DNA from: Cyanobacteriota bacterium
GTDB taxonomy: Bacteria; Acidobacteriota; Vicinamibacteria; Vicinamibacterales; UBA2999
Length of the DNA: 64,000 bases
Direction: 5' to 3'
Assembly: GCA_019752015.1 (NCBI GenBank)
Contig: JAIEMQ010000002.1
Span: forward strand, 31,869-95,868
Under the pieces are notes generated by a model. That model made no database searches and was not told the DNA's origin. It worked only from the letters and a program-made list of their open reading frames with translations. Below are positions 1,812-63,858 of the stretch, in pieces. The translations under genes were made by a program, and so were the position numbers. Every line of letters starts with the position of its first letter. Position 1 is the stretch's first letter.

Positions 1812-3404
1812 ATGGCCGATAACCAACCACGCCTGGCCCGGTCTGCCGGGGTTTTCGGGCTGGCGACCATCACGAGCCGTATCCTCGGCCTCGTTCGCGA
1901 CCAGGTCGTGGCGTTCTACTTCGGCGCCGGGGACGCCAACGACGCGTTCCGCGTCGCGAGCCGCATTCCCAACCTCGTCCGCGATCTCTTCGCCGAAGGG
2001 GCGATGAGCGCGGCGTTTGTGCCGACGTTCACAAGGCAGCTGACGCTGCACGGCCGCGAGCAATCGTGGCGCCTGGCCAGCTCGGTGATCAACGCGCTGC
2101 TGATCGTCACCGGCGTGATCGTCGTGCTCGGCATCGTGTTCGCGGCGCCGCTGGTGCGCCTGTTCGCGTCGGAGTTCAGCGACGTCCCCGGCAAGATCGA
2201 GCTGACGATCTACCTCACGCGCATCGTCTTCCCGTTCCTGACGCTGGTCGCGGTCGCGGCGGTGTTGATGGGGATGCTGAATTCGCTCGGCCACTTCTTC
2301 ATTCCGGCGCTGTCGCCCGCGATGTTCAACGTGGCCGTGGTAGTGATCTCGCTGACGTTGATCCCGTTCTCATCATCGATCGGCGTGCAGCCGATCACGA
2401 TCGTGGCGATCGCGACGCTGGTCGGCGGATTCGGACAGTTGATCATCCAGTGGCCGCCGCTGCGCAAGGAGGGCTTTCGCTATCAGCCGGTACTCGATCT
2501 GAAGGACGAAGGCCTGCTGCGCGTGCTGCTGTTGATGGGCCCCGGCACGATCGGCATGGCGGCGACGCAGATCAACGTGTTCGTCAACACGGTGCTGGCG
2601 ACCGGCGAAGGCACCGGTGCGGTATCGTGGCTCGATTTCGCGTTCCGGCTGATGTATCTGCCGATCGGGCTGTTCGGCGTCTCGATCGCCACGGCGGCAA
2701 CGCCGGCGATCTCGCGCATGGTGGCCGAACAGGACTTCGAGCGCATTCGATCGACGCTGGCCAACGCGCTCGGCCTGATGCTGTTCCTCAACCTGCCCGC
2801 GACCATCGGCCTGATCGTGCTGGCGCGCCCGATTGTCGCGATGATCTTCGAGCACGGCAACTTCACCGCGGCGGATACGATCGCGACGGCCGCGGCATTA
2901 CAGCTGTACGCCATCGGACTGGTCGGCTATTCGATCGTGCGCATCATCTCGCCGACGTTCTATGCCGTCGGCAGAAGCCGCATTCCGGTGATGGTCTCGG
3001 CGGGATCGGTGCTCGTGAACATCGCGCTGAACATCACGCTGGTTCGCGTGCTCGGCTATCGCGGGCTGGCGCTCGGCACCTCGATCACCGCAATCATCAA
3101 CGCCAGCGTTCAGCTGTTCCTGTTGCGGCGCGAGATTCACGGCATGCACGGCTCGCGCATCGCCGCATCGTTCATGAAAGTGATCGTCGCGTCAGCGGTG
3201 ATGGGCGGCGTCACGTGGATCGTTCACGAAACGATGATCTCGTGGTTGCCCGGCGACTCGCTGGCCTCGCAGATGTTGCGGCTGCTCGTCACTATTGCAC
3301 TTTCCCTCGCGGCGCTCGTGGGCGCCGCGCAAGTGTTGCGCATCCAGGAATATGCGGAGGCGCGTGATCTGATCGTCGGCCGTTTCAGAAGGATGGTCGG
3401 TTGA
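1812..3404 (+). CDS. murJ: Lipid II flippase MurJ (MviN)
   Basis: SRILGLVRD, RIPNLVRDLFAEGAMSAAFVP and RLMYLPIGLFG motifs; many TM segments. Confidence 0.95.
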   Translation: MADNQPRLARSAGVFGLATITSRILGLVRDQVVAFYFGAGDANDAFRVASRIPNLVRDLFAEGAMSAAFVPTFTRQLTLHGREQSWRLASSVINALLIVTGVIVVLGIVFAAPLVRLFASEFSDVPGKIELTIYLTRIVFPFLTLVAVAAVLMGMLNSLGHFFIPALSPAMFNVAVVVISLTLIPFSSSIGVQPITIVAIATLVGGFGQLIIQWPPLRKEGFRYQPVLDLKDEGLLRVLLLMGPGTIGMAATQINVFVNTVLATGEGTGAVSWLDFAFRLMYLPIGLFGVSIATAATPAISRMVAEQDFERIRSTLANALGLMLFLNLPATIGLIVLARPIVAMIFEHGNFTAADTIATAAALQLYAIGLVGYSIVRIISPTFYAVGRSRIPVMVSAGSVLVNIALNITLVRVLGYRGLALGTSITAIINASVQLFLLRREIHGMHGSRIAASFMKVIVASAVMGGVTWIVHETMISWLPGDSLASQMLRLLVTIALSLAALVGAAQVLRIQEYAEARDLIVGRFRRMVG

Positions 3405-21959: not shown

Positions 21960-21977
21960 GCCACAGATTGGGCACAG

Positions 21978-24284
21978 ATGTCACAGATTAACTCAGTCAC
22001 GGTGCTGGGCGCCGGCACGATGGGCGCGCAGATTGCGCTGCACTGCGCGAACGCCGGCATCCCGGCGCTGCTGCTCGACCTGACCGCCGACGCCGCGAAG
22101 CAGGGCCTCGACAAGGCGCGCAGGCTCAAGCCCGATCCGCAATTCACGCCCGAGGCGTTCAGGCTGGTCACGACCGGCGGCTTCGACACGCATCTCGACC
22201 TGATCGCGAAGACCGACTGGATCATGGAGGCGGTGGTCGAGCGCCTCGACATCAAGCAGCAGCTGCTCGCCAAGGTCGATGACAAGCGGCGTCCCGGATC
22301 GATCGTCAGCTCGAACACCTCCGGCATTCCGATCGCGGCGATCGCGGAGGGCCGCTCCGACGATTTCCGGAAGCACTGGCTCGGCACGCACTTCTTCAAT
22401 CCACCGCGCTACCTGCGATTGCTCGAGCTCATCCCGACGGCCGAAACGGATCCGGCCGTGCTTGCCGCCATGGTGCACTTCGGCGATCACGTCCTCGGCA
22501 AGGGCGTCGTCATCGCCAAAGACACGCCGAACTTCATCGCCAATCACGTCGGCCTTTACGGCGTGGCGCGCACACTCGACGCCCTGGCGAGCGGCAAATA
22601 CACGATCGAAGAGATCGATGCGATCACCGGCCCCGCGCTCGGCCGTCCGGGAAGCGCGACGTTCCGGACGATGGACATCGCCGGCATCGACGTGCTCGCG
22701 CACGTGCTGCGAAATCTGAGCGAGCACCTCACGACCGAATCGGATCGCAAGGCGTTCGCGGTCGCGCCGCTGGTCGAGAAGCTGATTGCCAACGGCGCGC
22801 TCGGCGAAAAGACCGGCAAGGGCTTCTACGAGCGGCGCAAGAGCGCGGCCGGCGAGACCGAGATCTGGACGCTCGATCCGGTGACGCTGCAGTACCGCCA
22901 GAAGCAGTCGGCACGAATCGGGTCGATCGAAGCCGGCAAGTCGATCGATGACGTCGGCGAGCGCGTGCGGATGCTCTTCAACAGCAAGGACAAGGCCGGC
23001 GAATTCCTGCGCGAGACGCTGGCCCCGACGCTGGTCTACACCGCGCGCGTCACGCCGCAGATCTCGCATTCGATCGACGATGTCGATCGCGCCATGCGAT
23101 GGGGCTTCGGCTGGGACCTCGGGCCGTTCGAGCTGATCGACGCGATCGGCGCCAAAGAAGTAGTGGCCGCAGCGCAAGGCACGCATTCGATGGAAGGCGG
23201 CGTGCCGCCGCTCATCGCCAGCCTGCTCGAAGCGGGCACGCCGAAGTTCCGCGAGGGACTCGTCAAGCCCGCCGCGGGCGACCTGCAAATCCTTCGCACG
23301 GCGAAAGAACAAAACCGCGTCATCAAGAAGAACGCCGGTGCGAGCCTGGTCGATATCGGCGACGGCGTGATCGCCATCGAGTTCCATTCGAAGATGAACG
23401 CGATCGGCGGCGACACCGTGCAGATGCTGCAGGCCGGCGTCAAGGAAGCTGCGAAGAGCGGACAGGCGCTGGTGATCGGCAACGACGCGCCGAACTTCTC
23501 CGCCGGCGCCAACCTGATGCTGGTGCTGCTCGAAGCGCAGGAAGGCAACTGGGACGAGATCGACTTGATGATCCGCGCGTTCCAGGGCGCGACCATGGCG
23601 CTTCGATACAGCCCGGTGCCGGTGGTTGCCGCACCGGCGGGCCTCGCCCTCGGCGGCGGTACCGAGATTCCGCTCCATTGCGATCGCGTGCAGGCGGCCG
23701 CGGAAACCTACATGGGCCTCGTCGAAGTCGGCGTCGGCCTGATTCCCGGCGGCGGCGGCACCAAGGAAATGCTGGTGCGCGCGATGTCGCAGCTGCCCAC
23801 GCCGTCGAGCGATCCGCTGCCGTATGTGTCGAAGGCGTTCGAGACCGTCGCGCTGGCGAAAGTTTCTGCGAGCGGTCCCGATGCGCTCCGGCTCGGCTAC
23901 TTGCAGCCCACGGATTCGTTCACGATGAATCGCGAGCGGCTGATGGCGGATGCCAAGGCGAGGGCGCTCGAGCGCGTCCGCGAGGGGTATCACGTGCCGC
24001 CGCCGCGCACCGCGATTCCGGTCGGCGGCGAATCGGTGACGGCGGCGCTCAATCTCGGCGTGCACCTGATGTGGCGGGCCGGCCGCGCCAGCGACCACGA
24101 CAAGCTGATCGGCCAGAAGCTCGCGCACATTTTCGGCGGCGGCAACGTGCCGCATGCGACGACGGTCACCGAGCAGTACTTGCTCGATCTCGAGCGCGAG
24201 GCTTTCATGAGTCTGCTGGGTCAGCGCAAGACGCTCGAACGCATTCAGCACACGCTGAAGACCGGGAAGCCGTTGAGGAACTGA
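21978..24284 (+). CDS. fadN: 3-hydroxyacyl-CoA dehydrogenase/enoyl-CoA hydratase
   Basis: GAGTMG, EAVVERLDIK, SSNTSG, THFFNPPRY; C-terminal crotonase domain with FSAGANL and ALGGGTE. Confidence 0.92.
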   Translation: MSQINSVTVLGAGTMGAQIALHCANAGIPALLLDLTADAAKQGLDKARRLKPDPQFTPEAFRLVTTGGFDTHLDLIAKTDWIMEAVVERLDIKQQLLAKVDDKRRPGSIVSSNTSGIPIAAIAEGRSDDFRKHWLGTHFFNPPRYLRLLELIPTAETDPAVLAAMVHFGDHVLGKGVVIAKDTPNFIANHVGLYGVARTLDALASGKYTIEEIDAITGPALGRPGSATFRTMDIAGIDVLAHVLRNLSEHLTTESDRKAFAVAPLVEKLIANGALGEKTGKGFYERRKSAAGETEIWTLDPVTLQYRQKQSARIGSIEAGKSIDDVGERVRMLFNSKDKAGEFLRETLAPTLVYTARVTPQISHSIDDVDRAMRWGFGWDLGPFELIDAIGAKEVVAAAQGTHSMEGGVPPLIASLLEAGTPKFREGLVKPAAGDLQILRTAKEQNRVIKKNAGASLVDIGDGVIAIEFHSKMNAIGGDTVQMLQAGVKEAAKSGQALVIGNDAPNFSAGANLMLVLLEAQEGNWDEIDLMIRAFQGATMALRYSPVPVVAAPAGLALGGGTEIPLHCDRVQAAAETYMGLVEVGVGLIPGGGGTKEMLVRAMSQLPTPSSDPLPYVSKAFETVALAKVSASGPDALRLGYLQPTDSFTMNRERLMADAKARALERVREGYHVPPPRTAIPVGGESVTAALNLGVHLMWRAGRASDHDKLIGQKLAHIFGGGNVPHATTVTEQYLLDLEREAFMSLLGQRKTLERIQHTLKTGKPLRN

Positions 24285-47258: not shown

Positions 47259-47370
47259 CAAACACGAAGGACACGAGGGGCACGAAGAAACTCTTTTCAC
47301 AATGCCGGGGCCGCTCAGCAGCACTTGTCTTTTGAACAAGTATTCTTCGTACCTTCGTACCTTCGTGTTG
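47259..47370. repeat. Inverted pair of CACGAAGG-type arrays around a ~53-nt spacer
   Basis: Left arm aacacgaaggacacgaggggcacgaagaa; reverse complement of the right arm aacacgaaggtacgaaggtacgaagaa. Confidence 0.75.
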
Positions 47371-54959: not shown

Positions 54960-55901
54960 GTGAGGACACGTGAGCAAGAGGTCGAGCCGCTCATCAACCT
55001 TTCGGAGATTACCGAGGTCGAGCTGCTGATTCTCAAGCGGATGCGGGAATTCACGATCGGCGAACACTCGAGCATGTTCCACGGCACGGGCTTCGACTTC
55101 GTCGGGCTGCGCGACTGGCAGGCGGGCGATCGCTTCGAGAACATCGACTGGCCGCAGTCGTCGCTGACCAACTTCAGCCCGATGGTGGTGCGCGAGTTCG
55201 AGCAGCCGACGACGTCGAGCGTGATCATGGTGGCGGATCGATCGGCGTCGACGCGCTGCGGCGCGACCGGCAAGTCGAACGATCGCGGCGCGCAGATCGC
55301 GACGCTGATCGCGCGCGCGATTGCCACCGTCGGCATGTCGGCGGTGTTCTTCCAGGATTCGATCGGCCTGATCACGTTCGGCGAAGGCTTTCACGAGCTC
55401 GGCGCCGTGCGGCCGCGCATCGGCAAGGGCCAGGTCATTCATTGCCTCGAGGCCTACCAGCAGGGCTTCGGCCTGCAGGACATCAAGAACATCGGCAGCC
55501 TCAGCGCGACGCTGACCGGCTTCTCTCGCAAGACGGCGATGATGCCGGTGATCTCGGACTTCCTGTTCGATGAGGCGCCGGATTTCCTGACCGAGCTGCG
55601 GCAGGTCAACAACGTGCACGATGTGTTCATCATGCTGGTCGATGCGTCGTTCGCGTTCGAGCTGCCGAAAGTCTCCGCGGGCTGGGTCGAGGTCTACGAC
55701 GTCGAGACCGGCCGCACGCGCATGATGTCGCGCCGCGAGCTGTCGCGGCAGAGCGAGCGCGTCAAGGCGTGGCAGAACGAAATCGCGCGGCAGGCCAAGG
55801 ACAACGATCTCGACGTCATCCGCCTGTCGCTGGATCAAGTGAAGTTTGATATCGCGCTGGTCGAATGGGTCGCGGAGAGACGGCTTCGCCGCAAGAAATG
55901 A
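54960..55901 (+). CDS. DUF58 protein (MxaS-like)
   Basis: GTGFDFVGLRDWQAGD..IDW, ADRSAS, ISDF. Confidence 0.9.
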   Translation: MRTREQEVEPLINLSEITEVELLILKRMREFTIGEHSSMFHGTGFDFVGLRDWQAGDRFENIDWPQSSLTNFSPMVVREFEQPTTSSVIMVADRSASTRCGATGKSNDRGAQIATLIARAIATVGMSAVFFQDSIGLITFGEGFHELGAVRPRIGKGQVIHCLEAYQQGFGLQDIKNIGSLSATLTGFSRKTAMMPVISDFLFDEAPDFLTELRQVNNVHDVFIMLVDASFAFELPKVSAGWVEVYDVETGRTRMMSRRELSRQSERVKAWQNEIARQAKDNDLDVIRLSLDQVKFDIALVEWVAERRLRRKK

Positions 55902-56019
55902 CGAAAAACGAAGAACGAAGAACGAAAAACGAAGAACGAAAAACGAAGAACGAAAAACGAAGAACGAAGAACGAAGAACGAAAAACGAAAAACGAAAAAC
56001 GAAGAACGAAAAACGAAAA
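55901..56019 (+). repeat. Heptamer tandem repeat (ACGAARA)x17
   Basis: 17 consecutive ACGAAAA/ACGAAGA units counted from the DUF58 stop codon. Confidence 0.95.
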
Positions 56020-56026
56020 ACAGACG

Positions 56027-57193
56027 ATGAGAATCCTCGTATTCGTGACGTTTTTGATGACAGGCAGTGCGGCATTCGCCCAAGCCCCAAGCCCCACGTC
56101 CCAGGCCCCTGTGGACATGGTCGAAGTCGAGCCGATCACCTGCTGGTGGCGGACCTCGACGAGCGCGGTGCGAATCGGCGAGTCGTTCGGACTGACGCTG
56201 ACGTGCTCGGTCGTCGAGACCGAGACCAACAAGGTCGTGCCCGACTTTTCGAAGCTCGACCCGACGGTCGTGCAGTTGCCGCCGTTCGAAGTCCTGGGTG
56301 GCGGCGCGCGCGCGGGCGATCTGGTGACGCCCGGCAAGCGGTTTTTCCAGTACGACTATCGCCTTCGGCTGATCGCGGAGGACGCGTTCGGCAACGACGT
56401 GCCGATTCCGCCGCTCGAGATTTCGTATCGCATCGAGAGCAAGGTGCAGGGCGGCGACACGACGCAGGGCCGCGACCAGTCGTATGCGCTGCCGCGCGCG
56501 TCGGTGCGGTTGATCTCGCTCGTGCCCGACGACACCAGCGACATCCGCGAAGCGCCGGCGGCAATGTTCACGGCGATCGAGAATCGCGAGTCGCGCGCCA
56601 ACATCATGCAGACGGTGGCCGGCGTGCTGTTCGGCCTGGCCGGCGTCATCGCGCTCGTGATGCTGATCGGCATGATTCGCCGCAAGACGCCGAAGTCGGC
56701 GGCGGCGGCCGCGCATCTTGGGCCGCGCACCATCCTTGGCGCCGTCTCGAAGGAGCTCGACGAAGTGCAGCGCGCCAGCCGCGGCGGCTGGACACCGGAG
56801 CTGGTCGGACGCGCGCTCGCGGCCTTGCGCATCGCGGGCGCCTACGCCACGCGCCGCTCCATTGGCCAGCGCCCGGCACTGCCAGGCGAGACGCCCCAGG
56901 AGGGCGTGATCGTCGTGCGCTCGTTCGGACGCGGCGAAGTGTTCGTCTCGGGAGCGGCGACGACGGAGACGGCGGCATTCGCGAATGCGCCGGGCGGATT
57001 GTCGGACGCACTGAAGACGCTGACGGTCGCGCGATACGGGCGCGCCGAAAAGTTCGACTCGATGGCGGACGAGGCCGTGCAGACGGCGATCCGCATCACC
57101 AGGGAACAGCAGTCCGCGCACTCGCTGATTCGCGAATGGGGATCGTCGTTCTCCGCATCGGTCGTCGATCTCAGAAAAAAAGTGTGGTCGTGA
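56027..57193 (+). CDS. MxaA/BatD-like membrane-anchored protein
   Basis: Signal peptide, beta-rich domain (VRIGESFGLTLTC), one TM helix, cytoplasmic helices; position in the operon. In-frame alternative ATG at 55898. Confidence 0.6.
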   Translation: MRILVFVTFLMTGSAAFAQAPSPTSQAPVDMVEVEPITCWWRTSTSAVRIGESFGLTLTCSVVETETNKVVPDFSKLDPTVVQLPPFEVLGGGARAGDLVTPGKRFFQYDYRLRLIAEDAFGNDVPIPPLEISYRIESKVQGGDTTQGRDQSYALPRASVRLISLVPDDTSDIREAPAAMFTAIENRESRANIMQTVAGVLFGLAGVIALVMLIGMIRRKTPKSAAAAAHLGPRTILGAVSKELDEVQRASRGGWTPELVGRALAALRIAGAYATRRSIGQRPALPGETPQEGVIVVRSFGRGEVFVSGAATTETAAFANAPGGLSDALKTLTVARYGRAEKFDSMADEAVQTAIRITREQQSAHSLIREWGSSFSASVVDLRKKVWS

Positions 57194-57213
57194 GGTCGTG
57201 AGGTCGTGAATTA

Positions 57214-58318: not shown

Positions 58319-58369
58319 TGTAGAGGCGCCTGTAGAGGCGGTTGTAGAGGCGGGACTTTAGTCCCGCCT
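58319..58369 (+). repeat. GTAG-type REP with triplicated 5' end
   Basis: TGTAGAGGCG x3 at 12-nt period, then AGGCGGGAC-TTTA-GTCCCGCCT. Confidence 0.8.
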
Positions 58370-59034: not shown

Positions 59035-59052
59035 CGGAATCTCTTGACCTGT

Positions 59053-59095
59053 TGATCTTGTGATCTTGTGATCTTGTGATCTGGTGATCTTGTGA
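59053..59095 (+). repeat. Octamer tandem repeat (TGATCTTG)x5
   Basis: The array runs into and supplies the GTG start at 59092. Confidence 0.88.
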
Positions 59096-60192
59096 GGTTC
59101 GGCGCTCCAGCGTTTTTGCCGTTGCTGGCGATTCCCGCCGCATTACTCCTGCTGTGGTGTTGGCAGTTGTGGCGCCGGCGCGCGGACGCGCGCGCGTTCA
59201 TGCGGCGCCGCCAGGTTCCGGTCGACGAGCGCATTCCGTTTTTCGGCGAGCTGCTGTTCTGGTTTTTCCTCGTCCTCGCGTCGGGAGCCGCGATCCTCGC
59301 GCTCGCCAAGCCGCAGGCCGTCACGAATCTGGTGCGGACCGCGGGGGTCGATCTCGTCATCCTGCAGGACGGCTCGGCGTCGATGCACGTCACCGACGTC
59401 AAGGGCGATCGCTGGCAGCGATCGATGAGGTTCCTGCGCACGCTCGGCGAAGCGCTGCGTTGGGAAAACGATCGCGTCGCCATGGCGCTGTTCGCGCACA
59501 TGGCGACGCCGCAGATCCGGTTGACCAAGGATCCCAACACCTATTTCTTCTTCCTCGATCACCTCGAGGACAAGTCGCCGTTCCGGCTCGAAGACGATGG
59601 CACGTGGGACACCAACATCGAGCGCGGCATCTACTGGGGCCTGCGGTTGATCGAGAAGGACGAGGAGATCCGCGGCAGCGCCGGCTTGTCGAAGAAGGGG
59701 CCGGTGCCGGACGCGGACAACTCGAAGGCGTTCGTGCTGATCTCCGACGGCCAGTCATGGAGCGGCGAGGTCGCGAAGTCGCTGGCGCTCGCCCAGGGCC
59801 GCGGCATTCCGTTGAGCGTGGTCGGCGTCGGCACGACCGCGGGCGGCATCATTCCGGATCCGAAGCGAGAGACCAATTCTCCGGTGGTGCGCTCGATCCT
59901 GAATCGCGCCGAGCTGACGCGCATCGCGACCGCCGGCGGCGGCCGCTATTACGAGCTCGATCGCGAAACCGATCGCGAGATCGCCAACCAGATCATCGAT
60001 CAGACACGCCGCCGCGCCGGCACCACCGGCATCCAGGAAGGCACGCGTGAGCTGTATTGGAATTTCCTGTTCGCCGCCGGCATCTTCCTCGCGCTCGGCG
60101 TCCTGTTCCTGCGCGACCGAGTCGCCCTCGCCCTGCAGCTCGCCGCCGCCGTTGCAGTGTTCCTGTTCGTGCAAGCGACTTTCACTCGATAG
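59092..60192 (+). CDS. VWA-domain membrane protein (MxaL/BatB-like)
   Basis: LALAKP, QDGSASM, LISDG, VGVGTTAGG, L..IATAGGGRY. Confidence 0.85.
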   Translation: MRFGAPAFLPLLAIPAALLLLWCWQLWRRRADARAFMRRRQVPVDERIPFFGELLFWFFLVLASGAAILALAKPQAVTNLVRTAGVDLVILQDGSASMHVTDVKGDRWQRSMRFLRTLGEALRWENDRVAMALFAHMATPQIRLTKDPNTYFFFLDHLEDKSPFRLEDDGTWDTNIERGIYWGLRLIEKDEEIRGSAGLSKKGPVPDADNSKAFVLISDGQSWSGEVAKSLALAQGRGIPLSVVGVGTTAGGIIPDPKRETNSPVVRSILNRAELTRIATAGGGRYYELDRETDREIANQIIDQTRRRAGTTGIQEGTRELYWNFLFAAGIFLALGVLFLRDRVALALQLAAAVAVFLFVQATFTR

Positions 60193-60194
60193 GG

Positions 60195-60780
60195 CCACGG
60201 AGACACGGAGGCACGGAGAGCATTTTTTGCTATCGCCCTCAGTGTCCTTAGACGCGAAATCTGCAAATTTGAAACGGTTGTTTGCGGCATTAGTGCGGGT
60301 TCTAGCCTCTAGCTCTAGCGCGGCACCATCCATGCTCCTAAGAAGACATGGATCACGAAGTTGACCTCACGGAGCAAATCATCGGCTGCGCGATTGAGGT
60401 GCATCGAGCACTTGGACCAGGCCTGCTCGAAAGCGCTTACAAGCGGGCGTTGTGCATTGAGTTGAAGCATCACCAGCTTCATTTTGAGCGTGAGAAACGC
60501 ATTCCGCTTCAGTACCGCGGCGCACGCTTGGGCGATTACTACGTCGACCTCATCGTCGCCAAACGCGTCGTCGTTGAAGTCAAGAGCGTGTTGCAGTGGG
60601 AACCGGTGTTCGAAGCGCAAATCCTGACGTATCTTCGAATCACGGGCGTCCGAGTCGGTCTGCTGATGAACTTCAACAAGAGCGTGTTGAAAGCCGGTAT
60701 GAAGCGGTTTGTCTTGTAGGCCGCGGCTAAGCGGCACTGGCGTTTAGAAGACAGGTCTCCGTGTCTCCGTGCCTCCGTGG
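60195..60780. mobile_element. Candidate element: GxxExxY gene bounded by inverted (CACGGAGR)x3 arrays
   Basis: 60195-60219 versus the reverse complement of 60756-60780: 23/25 identical; mobility is inferred only. Confidence 0.5.
60348..60719 (+). CDS. GxxExxY protein (PD-(D/E)XK nuclease superfamily)
   Basis: LGPGLLESAY, VDLIV...VVVEVKS, AQILTYL, GLLMNF. Confidence 0.93.
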   Translation: MDHEVDLTEQIIGCAIEVHRALGPGLLESAYKRALCIELKHHQLHFEREKRIPLQYRGARLGDYYVDLIVAKRVVVEVKSVLQWEPVFEAQILTYLRITGVRVGLLMNFNKSVLKAGMKRFVL

Positions 60781-60799
60781 TGCGTTTATACTGCGCGCC

Positions 60800-63217
60800 A
60801 TGGACGTTCTGTCTGACTTGAGGATCGCCGCGCGCGGGTTGATGCGCAGCAAAGGCTTTGCGATCGCCGGCGCAATCACGCTCGCGCTCGGCATCGCCGC
60901 CACCACCACAATCTTCAGCGTCGTCTACGGCGTGCTGCTGCGGCCGCTCCCCTATCGCGACGCCGACCGCCTGGTCGTGATCCAGGGCGAGAAGGCGTAT
61001 TCGACCGGCCCGCGCATCATGAATTTCTCCGCGCCGGAGCTGGAGCCATTTGTGGCGTCCGCGAAGGCATTTTCGTCGATCGCGTTCTCAGGCAGAAGTT
61101 TCCTCTCGCTACGTAACGACTCCGGTGTGCGCGGCGTGCCGGTGGCGACCGTATCCGGCGAGTTCTTCCAGACGCTTGGCACCAATCCGATAGTTGGCCG
61201 CGTCATCGGCGACGAGAAGGAGCCGGTCGTCGTAATCAGTGAGCGCTTTTGGCGGCAGGTCTTCGCATCTTCGCCAGACGTACTGGGACAATCCGTGACG
61301 CTCGCAGACGGTCCAACCATCGAGCGCACTTACACGATTGTCGGCGTGATGCCGGCGGAATTCCAGGTGCCGGATCCGAGGCTGGACGTCTGGCGGACGC
61401 TCGCATTTGCGCGCGCGACCGGTGATGGCCGGATCCGAGAGCTGGGTGTCGGCGGACATCAAATTTACGCGCGCCTCAAAGAGGGCGTCTCGCTCGAGGC
61501 CGCTCGCGCCGACGCCTCCGCGACCGTCGACCGCGTGCTCAAGCCGCACTTCACCAACAGCCGCATCGACATGTATGCGAAGACCACGCCTCTCAGCGAG
61601 TTCGTCCGCGGCACGATCGGGCCGGCGCTGTGGGTGCTGATGGGCGCGGTCACCCTGGTGCTGCTCGTCGCATGCGCGAATGTCGCCAACCTGATCCTCG
61701 CGAGACAAACGTCGCGCGCGAGGGAAATCTCGATGCGGCTCGCGCTGGGCGCTCCGCGCGGCCGTCTGATCGCCTGTCTGATGACTGAAGGCGCGATGCT
61801 CGCGGTCGCCGGTGCGGTCGCGGGCGTCGCGATGGCGTTCGGCGCGATCGCCCTGCTCCAATACATGGAGCCGTCCCAAGTCACGCGGCTTGATGCGGTG
61901 GCGGTCGATCTACCGGTAATCGTTTTCGCGAGCACCGTCACGATGGCGTCGGCGTTGCTGGCCTCGCTGTCGCCGGCAGTCCTGGCCACCAGAACCGATG
62001 CCGCATCGGCGCTTCGCGCCGGCACTCGCGGCGTTGCCGCGCCTGGCATGGTCCGGTGGCTGCGCTCAGCGCTCGTGGTCGCGGAAATCGCAACGTCGAT
62101 CATCTTGATCGTCGGCGCCGCGCTGCTGGCGCGAAGCCTGTCGGCGCTGCTCAATACCGATATCGGCGTCAACACTGAAAACGTCATTGCGGCGAATCTC
62201 GACATGGCACCGAGGCCGGGCCAGCCCTCCGATGAGGCTCGGCGGCGCCAGATTGCCAACGACCTGCAGGCGAGGCTCGCTGCGCTTCCGACGGTCTCCG
62301 CGGTTGGCATCGGTAGCGCGGTGCCGCCATCACTCGAGCAGATGCGGGTCAGCTTCATCCTCTCAAACGGCAAGTCGAGCGATTCGCACATGGTGACGAT
62401 GGTGCCGGCAAGCCCCGGCTATTTCACCGCATTGCAAATTCGCCTGGTCGCCGGCCGCCTGTTCGAGGATCGTGACGACGCGCTCGCCGAACCGGTGGTG
62501 ATCGTCAGCCGCGAGGCGGCCCGGCGGTTTTTCGGCAATGATGATCCCCTTGGCCGCACGCTGCCGTTGATGGGCAAGCAAGTGACGATCGTGGGTGTCG
62601 TCGACAACGTCAAGTACACGGGGATCGCCTCGGGCCCGGAGAGCGTCTTATATGCGCCGTACGCGCAACAACCGGTGATGATGTCGGTGCTGTTCGCGCG
62701 CACGACCGGGGATCCCGGCCAGACTGCCGCCGACATCCGCCGCCTGATCATGTCGTACGACTCGGCGATCGGCGTCCCCCGGTTATGGACGTTGAACCAA
62801 TGGATCGCAGACGCCACGGCTCAGCCAAGATTCCGAACGATTCTACTCAGCTCGATCGCGGTGATCACACTGTGCCTCGCCATCATCGGGCTCTACGGCG
62901 TGATCGCGTATGCGACGTCGCAGCGCACATCTGAGATTGGCCTGCGCATCGCGATCGGCGCGCAGCGCGGCGATGTCATCAGGCTGGTATTAAGTGAAGG
63001 CGCCAGGCTGGCGGGCGCGGGCATCATCCTCGGCCTCGCCGGGTCGTATTGGGCGACGCAGCTGTTGTCGTCATTTCTCTACGGCGTCACTGCCACCGAC
63101 CCGGCCGCGTTCGGCGCCGCCGCGATCACGTTATTCTTCGTCGCCCTCCTGGCGACATACCTCCCCGCCCGGCGAGCGGCGCGTATCGACCCGATGACCG
63201 CACTCAGAACCGAATAA
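60800..63217 (+). CDS. ADOP-type duplicated ABC permease (MacB/FtsX domains)
   Basis: LALGIAATTTIFS..LLRPLPY, LLVACANVANL, EIGLRIAIGA, ARRAARIDPMTALRTE. Confidence 0.92.
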   Translation: MDVLSDLRIAARGLMRSKGFAIAGAITLALGIAATTTIFSVVYGVLLRPLPYRDADRLVVIQGEKAYSTGPRIMNFSAPELEPFVASAKAFSSIAFSGRSFLSLRNDSGVRGVPVATVSGEFFQTLGTNPIVGRVIGDEKEPVVVISERFWRQVFASSPDVLGQSVTLADGPTIERTYTIVGVMPAEFQVPDPRLDVWRTLAFARATGDGRIRELGVGGHQIYARLKEGVSLEAARADASATVDRVLKPHFTNSRIDMYAKTTPLSEFVRGTIGPALWVLMGAVTLVLLVACANVANLILARQTSRAREISMRLALGAPRGRLIACLMTEGAMLAVAGAVAGVAMAFGAIALLQYMEPSQVTRLDAVAVDLPVIVFASTVTMASALLASLSPAVLATRTDAASALRAGTRGVAAPGMVRWLRSALVVAEIATSIILIVGAALLARSLSALLNTDIGVNTENVIAANLDMAPRPGQPSDEARRRQIANDLQARLAALPTVSAVGIGSAVPPSLEQMRVSFILSNGKSSDSHMVTMVPASPGYFTALQIRLVAGRLFEDRDDALAEPVVIVSREAARRFFGNDDPLGRTLPLMGKQVTIVGVVDNVKYTGIASGPESVLYAPYAQQPVMMSVLFARTTGDPGQTAADIRRLIMSYDSAIGVPRLWTLNQWIADATAQPRFRTILLSSIAVITLCLAIIGLYGVIAYATSQRTSEIGLRIAIGAQRGDVIRLVLSEGARLAGAGIILGLAGSYWATQLLSSFLYGVTATDPAAFGAAAITLFFVALLATYLPARRAARIDPMTALRTE

Positions 63218-63249: not shown

Positions 63250-63858
63250 GTGCGTCGCTTCCTGATCGTCGCGGGTGTGTTCTTGAGCGCGTGCGGCTCG
63301 CAGCCGAAGGAAGAAGACTACATCGCGAAGATTTCCGCGATTCGCGCCGCCAAGGACGAGAGCTTCAAGACCGATCCGGATTCGCCGATTCCCGCCGACA
63401 AGAAGTCGACGCTGCTGCCGCTCGCGTACTATCCGATTGATGAACGCTACGCGGTGCCGGCGTCGCTCGAACCGTCGGCCGACCGCTCGCGCATCGAGGT
63501 GCCGACATCGATCGGAAAAATCCGGCAGCTCGAACGGATCGGCGCGCTCAAGTTCTCGCTGAAGGGGCAACCACTGCGATTGACGGCGTTCCGGGACCTG
63601 GAATCGCAGGGTGTCAATCGGCTGTTCGTGCCGTTCGCCGATCAAACCAGCGGCACTGAAACGTATCAAGCCGGCCGATACATGGAGCTCGATCCCACTC
63701 CAACCGGCATCTACGTCGTCGACTTCAATGTCGCTTACAACCCGTACTGCTACTACAGCCCCGAGTACGACTGCCCCTTCCCGCCCAAGGAGAACCGGCT
63801 CGAGGTGCCGATCCGCGCCGGCGAGAGGATGCAAAAGGCGGACATCAGCACTCCATGA
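63250..63858 (+). CDS. DUF1684 lipoprotein
   Basis: Lipobox LSAC; DQTSGTETYQAGRY; DFNVAYNPYC..CPFPP. Confidence 0.88.
   Translation: MRRFLIVAGVFLSACGSQPKEEDYIAKISAIRAAKDESFKTDPDSPIPADKKSTLLPLAYYPIDERYAVPASLEPSADRSRIEVPTSIGKIRQLERIGALKFSLKGQPLRLTAFRDLESQGVNRLFVPFADQTSGTETYQAGRYMELDPTPTGIYVVDFNVAYNPYCYYSPEYDCPFPPKENRLEVPIRAGERMQKADISTP

Follow-up and report, generated by a model that had tools for sequence, protein, structure and literature searches.

A small GxxExxY nuclease-fold gene between inverted tandem-octamer arrays fits a compact selfish cassette found in many bacterial phyla

In a stretch of 64,000 nucleotides (nt) from an acidobacterial genome deposited as Cyanobacteriota bacterium (assembly GCA_019752015.1, contig JAIEMQ010000002.1; the whole stretch is called the window), a small gene of the GxxExxY family lies between two inverted arrays of a tandem octamer at positions 60195-60780. 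Genes of this family were found in brackets of the same kind elsewhere in the genome, in its congeners and across many phyla, and the repeat unit of the bracket co-varies with the subfamily of the encoded protein. With a probability of about one half, we read the locus as one old copy of a nuclease cassette that is promoter-less and widespread; its arms are predicted to be the cognate sites of the protein, and gene-less hairpins would be derived from such cassettes. The genome holding the window (5.92 Mb in 82 contigs) is referred to as G000, and positions are numbered on the window unless a contig is named.

Nuclease-fold genes within inverted tandem arrays

The cassette is 586 bp long and occupies the gap between two genes of the forward strand, on which all of its parts are read here. 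The upstream gene (59092-60192), encoding a VWA-domain (BatA/BatB-like) protein (PF00092, E 1.4e-10), ends with the stop codon TAG at 60190-60192, and a GG separates this stop from the left arm, CCACGGAGACACGGAGGCACGGAGA (60195-60219, 25 nt), which is made of three tandem CACGGAGN octamers with a CC prefix. The right arm, TCTCCGTGTCTCCGTGCCTCCGTGG (60756-60780), is the inverted copy of the left one; a gap of 19 nt separates it from the ATG of the next gene, which encodes an ADOP-family duplicated permease (60800-63217; TIGR03434, E 6.7e-236). Complementarity between the arms is 23/25, with both mismatches at the degenerate eighth base of the octamer, and Tandem Repeats Finder reported both arms as period-8 arrays of about 3 copies. 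Next to the left arm, on the side of the gene, lies a diverged inner-stem half ending in CCCTCAGTGTCCTTAG (60220-60251), recognized by its pairing with 60727-60755 in the RNA fold and by comparison with gene-less hairpins of relatives. It is followed by a leader (60252-60347) that is kept in orthologous metagenomic loci, by the gene for the 123-residue GxxExxY protein (60348-60719), and by the right inner-stem half, GCTAAGCGGCACTGGCGTTTAGAAGACAGG (60720-60755), which together with the right arm forms a dispersed repeat of the genus. The GxxExxY gene is the sole open reading frame (ORF) with a family match between the arms. The initial annotation of this DNA, made from the letters alone, had placed the array 2 nt past the VWA stop, its 23/25 inverted copy 19 nt before the next ATG and GxxExxY as the only gene between them, and on re-reading all of this was exact. 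No Rfam family matched in 59900-61000, and the cassette sits between two protein genes and outside 23S rRNA. Within the leader there is a small TCTAGC(C) repeat at 60301-60319, and one contig of the DNA run X5 lacks 6 nt at 60307.

The product of 60348-60719 matches PF13366 (E 1.2e-41, 142.2 bits against a cut-off of 22) and TIGR04256, the GxxExxY profile (E 1.2e-42, 144.9 bits against a cut-off of 35, positions 1-116 of 116). These were the only Pfam and NCBIfam matches, and no HUH tyrosine transposase family was among them. Across an alignment of 30 sequences, E28 (of GxxExxY), D67 and E77 never vary, and the conservation of K79 is 90% or higher. The AlphaFold2 model of the protein has a mean predicted local distance difference test (pLDDT) score of 92.6, and its structure neighbours by VIA-align were Cas4 SSO0001 (Z 8.1), the CinB nuclease, SwaI, BpuSI, BglII and Hjc (Z 6.9); Foldseek with the same model gave no match at E <= 0.001, the best being Cas4 SSO0001 at 2.1e-3. 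The pattern E28/D67/E77/K79 and the modelled fold together place the protein in the PD-(D/E)XK superfamily, to which the initial annotation had assigned it; the structure comparison confirms the fold and no more, and catalysis is predicted. By sequence, nothing was found under E 0.25 in the PDB, and no family at E <= 0.01 in PADLOC-DB (anti-phage defence) or PHROGs (phage). The GxxExxY/PDDEXK_3 family is very large (7936 of 8000 scored proteins at E <= 1e-10), and the passages on it in a 2012 survey of PD-(D/E)XK proteins list its function as unknown (PMC3424549).

The bracket around these genes is not due to chance. All seven GxxExxY genes of G000 are bracketed by inverted tandem arrays with 21-33 matching bases, the units being CACGGAGN, CACGAAGNN, CACAGAAN, CACAGATTn (three genes) and GCAGAAGGC. 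Among 3000 random G000 segments of 345 nt, handled identically to the genes, 13 had a flanking inverted repeat of at least 20 matches, two of these with tandem arms and none with a CACNRA arm. In the congeners (28 genomes, one locus each; the unpublished genome G047 was left out here and is excluded from all claims), 20 of 27 testable loci were bracketed, one was ambiguous (L032) and six had no bracket at the settings used. A cross-phylum sample, for which one genome per species was scanned, comprised 80 loci, 78 of them testable, from Acidobacteriota, Chloroflexota, Verrucomicrobiota, Planctomycetota, Nitrospirota, Geobacterales, Leptospirales, Cloacimonadota and other groups. Here an inverted repeat of at least 16 matches was present at 58 of the 78 loci, and CACNRAG arrays stood upstream on the gene strand and inverted downstream at 53; when the right flank was shuffled, 1 of 390 trials reached 16 matches. 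The initial annotation had proposed a survey of GxxExxY loci for flanking arrays, to be set against other genes, and the figures for G000, the congeners and the phyla, compared with 13/3000 random segments, bear out its expectation. A control that combined left and right flanks taken from different loci was given up as a null, since 171 of 379 such pairs were positive; this shows arm likeness, because the arms nearly all read GCCACAGAGnCACAGAGnCACAGAG.

That sequence, or one near to it, amounting to three copies of CACRGAGN, forms the arms at nearly all of the 58 bracketed cross-phylum loci. When the two arms of a locus are compared column by column, the CAC.GAG core shows 21 differences in 1002 cells (about 2%), while the degenerate columns agree in 70% of cases against 48% when shuffled, the 70% being somewhat inflated by the choice of the best register. 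The repeat unit and its period co-vary with the protein subfamily: in 28 cassettes (21 from congeners, 7 from G000) proteins of the same unit class were on average 64% identical and those of different classes 46%, a gap that none of 5000 label shuffles reached and to which genome relatedness contributes. In G000 the GxxExxY genes sit only in CACRRA-type arrays (7/7), though other array families are far commoner. The window protein is 43-53% identical to its six G000 paralogues (protein identity among paralogues is 32-61% overall) and 54-66% identical to proteins of other phyla with like arms. Being nearer to other phyla than to its paralogues, the protein points to horizontal spread of whole cassettes between lineages. 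The number of GxxExxY genes is also patchy, ranging from 0 to 8 per congener. An attempt to read gene orientation from arm polarity (CACRGAG first, CTCYGTG second) was dropped as uninformative, since the polarity is identical on both strands of any inverted repeat.

The build of the cassette was summarized over the same 58 loci, with frames called crudely as the longest open frame. The arm-to-arm span is 407-906 nt with a median of about 490. Where the upstream frame is co-directional, the arm starts between -6 and +13 nt from its stop in 26 of 42 cases; both neighbours run in the direction of the gene at 30 loci, one at 21 and neither at 1, with 6 unclear. No sigma-70-like promoter site was found in 59900-61000. 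Given the position directly behind a host stop and in the same direction, the cassette is probably transcribed by read-through from the upstream host gene. RNA runs were looked up for 59600-61200, and none was found. In the predicted RNA fold of 60190-60790 (z -5.3) the arms close around the gene with a stem of about 25 bp, and the half-loops pair too.

Gene-less hairpins and the history of the cassette

An orthologous VWA gene was found in 23 congeners (73-89% identity), and in none of the 23 did the following 1.5 kb contain a GxxExxY gene. Directly behind the VWA stop, three congeners (G022, G010 and G013) have a gene-less hairpin with the same CACGGAG arms and the same right half-loop, starting with GCGGCACTGGCGTTT, so that aligning the orthologous junctions, as the initial annotation had advised, did reveal sites lacking the gene. 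At this junction other congeners have hairpins of the units GGGCTTG, CAGAAGG, GAGGTCTT and CACGAAG (the last in G008), and G015 has none. At five metagenomic loci the encoded protein has 81-90% identity with that of the window; the VWA gene precedes the nuclease gene in the three that reach far enough upstream, and ADOP follows in two. These five loci are orthologues of the window locus. In a quick VWA tree the gene-bearing G000, L074 and L076 form a clade with a Shimodaira-Hasegawa-like approximate likelihood ratio (SH-aLRT) support of 96, and the three genomes with the gene-less hairpin belong to an unresolved group of 15 outside this clade. A count of one gain against three losses on this tree was considered, and it was weakened by the frequent in-place losses at a second locus, C4, described below. 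The two forms could be interconverted, in either direction, if the stretch flanked by two direct arm copies were gained or lost. Among the contigs of four DNA runs that were aligned to the stretch, two join 60219 to 60756 and were examined as candidates for excision at the VWA-ADOP locus; their outer flanks are unlike the window, which makes them gene-less hairpins of other places or organisms.

The ADOP gene was likewise absent from the VWA junction in most congeners. In several congeners (loci L002, L003 and L008) the VWA gene is directly followed by a homologue of the window ORF 63250-63858, so the 2.4-kb ADOP gene is also present or absent at this junction, and the metagenomic locus L074 retains only the 3' end of ADOP.

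A decay series was read at another G000 cassette, on contig C4, which has the unit CACGAAGG and stands behind a gene for an 862-amino-acid (aa) protein. The orthologous junction was read in 28 genomes. Nine carry an intact gene between CACGAAG-type arms (in G002 with other repeats), G016 has a gene without its N-terminal 15 residues, in G004 the gene is frameshifted into two frames, and in G001 it is cut to 38 aa. Gene-less hairpins of the CACGAAGG unit occupy the site in five genomes (G017, G022, G005, G041 and G009), another hairpin or none is found in 10, and a contig end cuts the junction in 1. The gene carriers span both main clades and two basal lineages of the VWA tree, and from this distribution the cassette is probably as old as the genus at this site and has been lost many times. 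The series indicates that gene-less hairpins can be what remains after gene loss. Gene-less hairpins at both the VWA and the C4 locus invited comparison with homing endonucleases; at C4 gene decay is the better explanation. In G000 the 862-aa frame at C4 stays open for about 34 codons more, through the left CACGAAG arm and the leader (L171, G000:C4:19500-25500, 3137-3236), unlike in G013, where a stop stands just ahead of the arm; the C4 cassette may thus have altered the C-terminus of its neighbour in G000.

The termini also occur without the gene at many other places. The half-loop with the right arm (60723-60781) matches tens of places in the congeners at 80-89%, and the matches often overlap as plus/minus pairs, that is as palindromes of about 110 nt. 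Arrays of (CACRGAGN)2CACRGAG with at most one mismatch number 0-92 per congener (G008 92, G002 75, G004 46, G049 45, and 4 in G000). CACRRA-type arrays occur at only two further places in the window: a gene-less hairpin at 47260-47369 (arms 47260-47289 and 47344-47369) of the sister unit CACGAAGG, which brackets the C4 gene, and a solo array starting with GCCACAGATT (21960-21989, forward strand) directly after a TGA stop, whose CACAGATT unit is of the type that brackets three other G000 GxxExxY genes. All remaining arrays of the window belong to ten or more other unit families, including CCGGCTC, AATTAAA, GAAGGCA, ACGAAAA, GTGAGGTC and TGATCTTG. In G000 as a whole there are 1264 non-overlapping period-7/8 arrays of 396 canonical units, and about 109 inverted tandem-arm pairs with a gap below 200 nt.

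These other families have small genes of their own. Of the 12 four-helix-bundle (TIGR02436) genes of G000, 10 are bracketed by inverted repeats within 700 nt (C38:24610-25609, C3:24207-25306, C23:17655-18233, C36:4511-5182, C36:57257-57574, C2:121114-121741, C34:42692-43232, C17:109003-109320, C15:27384-27704 and C9:98602-98922, the last outside the window). The initial annotation had suggested that the GxxExxY cassette might be the autonomous source of the arrays across the window; this idea is not supported, since other unit families dominate and bracket four-helix-bundle genes. Nine of the four-helix-bundle brackets have tandem arms, each of a different unit (CCGGGAG, GGTGCCTG, AAAGGAA, GATTTGG, GGTTCCAGG, TGATCTGT, AAAGAAC, AATTAAA and a 19-mer), and two fragmentary matches of the family lie, over a larger span, between AAGGCAG and GAGGTCTT arrays. 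With these two fragments, the brackets cover seven of the eight commonest period-7/8 families of G000, and it looks as if there were one gene per array family.

A further type of gene-less element in G000, about 190-230 nt long, has CACAGATT arms on the outside, and its inner part is a branched palindrome in which a long central stem is accompanied by two small GC hairpins. Between these elements the stem varies in sequence, and self-complementarity is kept in each (C10:117925-118133, C11:100900-101090, C12:64935-65161, C22:2527-2751, C27:28252-28464, C28:11458-11679, C3:30416-30648, C30:55924-56142, C6:175832-176026, C9:136568-136758 and C64:5793-5974); similar branched palindromes stand on both sides of the GxxExxY gene at C13:70824-71681. 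Every intercistronic gap in the row of VWA/Bat-like genes of the window has a short tandem array of a different unit, namely GTGAGGTC at 57182-57209, TGTAGAGGCGGC at 58319-58353, TGATCTTG at 59045-59095 and CACGGAGA at 60195-60219, and some of these arrays overlap stop and start codons. In the 5' part of an ORF of 442 aa there is a 17-copy ACGAAAA/ACGAAGA heptamer array (55901-56021), translated as a KNE-rich repeat, TKNEERR.

Explanations of the bracketed gene

The explanation that we prefer starts from what was observed of the anatomy of the cassette, its association with arrays, the specificity of unit for subfamily, the conservation of catalytic residues, the presence and absence of the gene at orthologous sites, its decay and its build. 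The cassette is taken to be a GxxExxY gene inside inverted arms of three tandem CACRGAGN octamers each, able to close into a long stem around the gene. The encoded nuclease would act as a multimer that binds the arms and cleaves there or close by, and from this activity would result both the rare spreading of the cassette and the multiplication of arm-loop-arm hairpins that lack the gene. Over time the gene would decay or be deleted, leaving a gene-less hairpin at the site. The initial annotation had called the locus a compact selfish element, and the recurrent unit with conserved termini, in unrelated gene contexts and with patchy presence, fits this description; signs of recent movement did not emerge.

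Several results weigh against this explanation. No near-identical second cassette was found in G000 or in 36 congeners, the best match of the ORF being 71% at the nucleotide level, and the nearest relatives, the five metagenomic loci, are syntenic with the window locus, so that recent movement is not shown. Such synteny was named in the initial annotation as an outcome that would speak against mobility; it holds for the nearest relatives, and in the 23 congeners with the VWA gene the nuclease gene is absent from the site. As that annotation had remarked, there is no target-site duplication at the window locus, and a scan of 52 other cassettes that allowed offsets gave none either, the best abutting direct repeat being 0-3 nt in 46 and 4-5 nt in 6. 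The number of arrays is only weakly correlated with that of genes (Spearman 0.33, p 0.046, in 36 related genomes), and G010 (100% complete, 20 arrays) and G022 (90% complete, 24 arrays) have no GxxExxY match at E <= 1e-10. Finally, the gene is followed by a complete hairpin, with left arm, loop and right arm, at four of the six orthologous loci that carry it, so gene and hairpin may be separable modules. The three of these four loci that extend upstream have an extra left arm ahead of the gene; the window locus and L076 have no second left arm, and the window retains both half-loops. A first reading, in which the gene had been inserted at the apex of a hairpin with duplication of CTTAG, was made uncertain by the same four loci.

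The main rival explanation, which we consider unlikely though worth serious attention, is a partnership of the kind known for repetitive extragenic palindromes (REP) and the REP-associated tyrosine transposases (RAYT). A stationary, vertically inherited and thus domesticated nuclease would act in trans on the gene-less hairpins, dispersing or maintaining them, possibly as host terminators or protectors of mRNA ends, and the arms of the gene would simply be the nearest members of the repeat. This would account for the synteny of the gene in close relatives, for the persistence of the C4 gene across both main clades and basal lineages, for the dispersal of the half-loop and arm as a repeat, for the excess of hairpins over genes (at the extreme, G008 has 92 arrays and 4 genes) and for the several array families of G000 that each have one bracketed small gene. 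It is harder to reconcile with a protein that is nearer to other phyla than to its paralogues and with termini conserved across phyla, both of which suggest transfer of the whole cassette, or with the in-place decay of the gene at C4; the arrays that persist in two genomes without a GxxExxY gene count against this partnership as well.

The bracket could also be explained at the level of RNA, by a device like the intervening sequences of 23S rRNA in which the arms form a stem for excision of the cassette by RNase III from a polycistronic host transcript or for stabilising or gating the nuclease mRNA, and in which the protein need not contact the arrays. The promoter-less build, the abutting upstream stop and the co-directional neighbours (30 against 1), the predicted stem around the gene, and the four-helix-bundle genes of G000 in like brackets would all agree with such a device. 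However, the arm mismatches have no excess of G-U on the sense strand (50 versus 60, p 0.39, plus 64 transversions), which speaks for constraint on a DNA motif and against a mere RNA stem. The mismatch rate of the CAC.GAG core, 2% against about 30% in the degenerate columns, is also tighter than pairing requires, and the core is kept across phyla where a pure stem would drift. We regard this explanation as slightly less probable than the previous one. Least probable of all, and in our view improbable, is that the gene is a passenger in a host hairpin, the arrays arising by slippage at gene junctions and small genes surviving in the loops with no link between nuclease and array. The great number of arrays, units and closely spaced inverted pairs in G000, and hairpins of quite different units at the VWA junction among congeners, are what would be expected of passengers. 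A passenger would not, however, be expected to show the same pairing of unit and subfamily in Acidobacteriota, Chloroflexota, Verrucomicrobiota, Planctomycetota, Nitrospirota, Geobacterales and others, nor protein and unit that co-vary, nor the confinement of GxxExxY genes to CACRRA-type arrays despite far commoner families.

A wider reading, to which we hold only tentatively and which is clearly less probable than that of the old nuclease cassette, is that GxxExxY and, in parallel, four-helix-bundle proteins are the missing partners of hairpins built of short-unit tandem arrays, which would form a pan-bacterial class. Each protein subfamily would recognize a unit of its own, 7-11 nt long, travel on the transcripts of the host in a cassette without a promoter, give rise to families of gene-less hairpins and later decay. 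The class would then include the 'global regulator sites' of Geobacter, and the heptamer arrays of Xanthomonas and cyanobacteria might belong to it too. Were this so, it would be a new nuclease-driven foldback element of bacteria and would explain genomes crowded with short arrays. Apart from this, the fixed partnership of gene and motif offers a direct test for an orphan family, namely binding or cutting of (CACRGAGN)3, and an origin for intergenic repeats that genome papers record as putative regulator sites. It also provides a compact natural pair of a putative sequence-specific nuclease and its site, in which the specificity seems to change from one protein subfamily to another (units of 8, 9 and 11 nt).

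Comparison with known systems

In the literature on GxxExxY, PDDEXK_3/PF13366 and TIGR04256/TIGR02436/PF05635 no paper on such cassettes was found, and the unit of GxxExxY gene and arrays looks like an undescribed selfish cassette. Among known systems REP sequences and their doublets (REPIN) with RAYT come close: a tyrosine transposase gene is flanked by inverted copies of the repeat, gene-less doublets form hairpins, enzyme and repeat pair family by family, and inheritance is mostly vertical. The likeness lies in an enzyme gene between inverted copies of a repeat that is also dispersed as gene-less inverted doublets, as found here. The enzyme of the cassette, however, is a PD-(D/E)XK nuclease of 123 aa, whereas RAYT is an HUH/Y1 transposase; the cassette arms are three direct octamers that are not self-complementary, whereas REP is self-palindromic; and the cassette genes are several and diverged per genome (0-8), in cassettes common to many phyla.

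The 23S rRNA intervening sequences of Leptospira and Coxiella have a small ORF between inverted repeats, which pair into a stem within a long transcript of the host, and the four-helix-bundle family was first named from ORFs in these sequences. They share with the cassette the small ORF in inverted repeats and the predicted stem, and the four-helix-bundle genes of G000 are similarly bracketed in 10 of 12 cases. The cassette differs in standing between protein genes, in encoding a nuclease and in having tandem octamers with a cross-phylum core. In foldback-type transposons such as Galileo, and in pairs of MITEs (miniature transposable elements with inverted repeats) and insertion sequences (IS), the terminal repeats consist of short tandem protein-binding units and gene-less derivatives outnumber full copies. 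Terminal inverted repeats of short tandem units and commoner gene-less derivatives are likewise seen here, but the cassette is bacterial, shorter than 0.6 kb and without a known transposase class or target-site duplication; near-identical copies at multiple sites, as in IS/MITE families, were not found, and only the 60-nt half-loop with the arm recurs, at 80-89%.

Two printed records of bacterial arrays can be set beside the cassette. The G-rich heptamers of Xanthomonas and Nostoc make up 7-mer arrays that occur between genes in their hundreds, and in a Xanthomonas genome 70-75 pairs of these arrays are convergent (Rehm et al. 2015, PMC4692102); they have another unit, and the sections of that paper on the arrays report no enclosed gene and interpret them as quadruplex-forming DNA. 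For Geobacter metallireducens 21 paired sites are listed, each with three TCTCCGTS(Y) copies in tandem, the partners being on opposite strands and variably spaced (Aklujkar et al. 2009, PMC2700814); the paragraphs devoted to these sites read them as IHF/HU or regulator sites, naming no enclosed nuclease gene. The sequence TCTCCGTS(Y) is the reverse complement of the window unit. These sites are the closest printed record that we found, and at the Geobacterales loci L151 and L158 of our cross-phylum sample GxxExxY genes do lie inside arms of the TCTCCGTS type.

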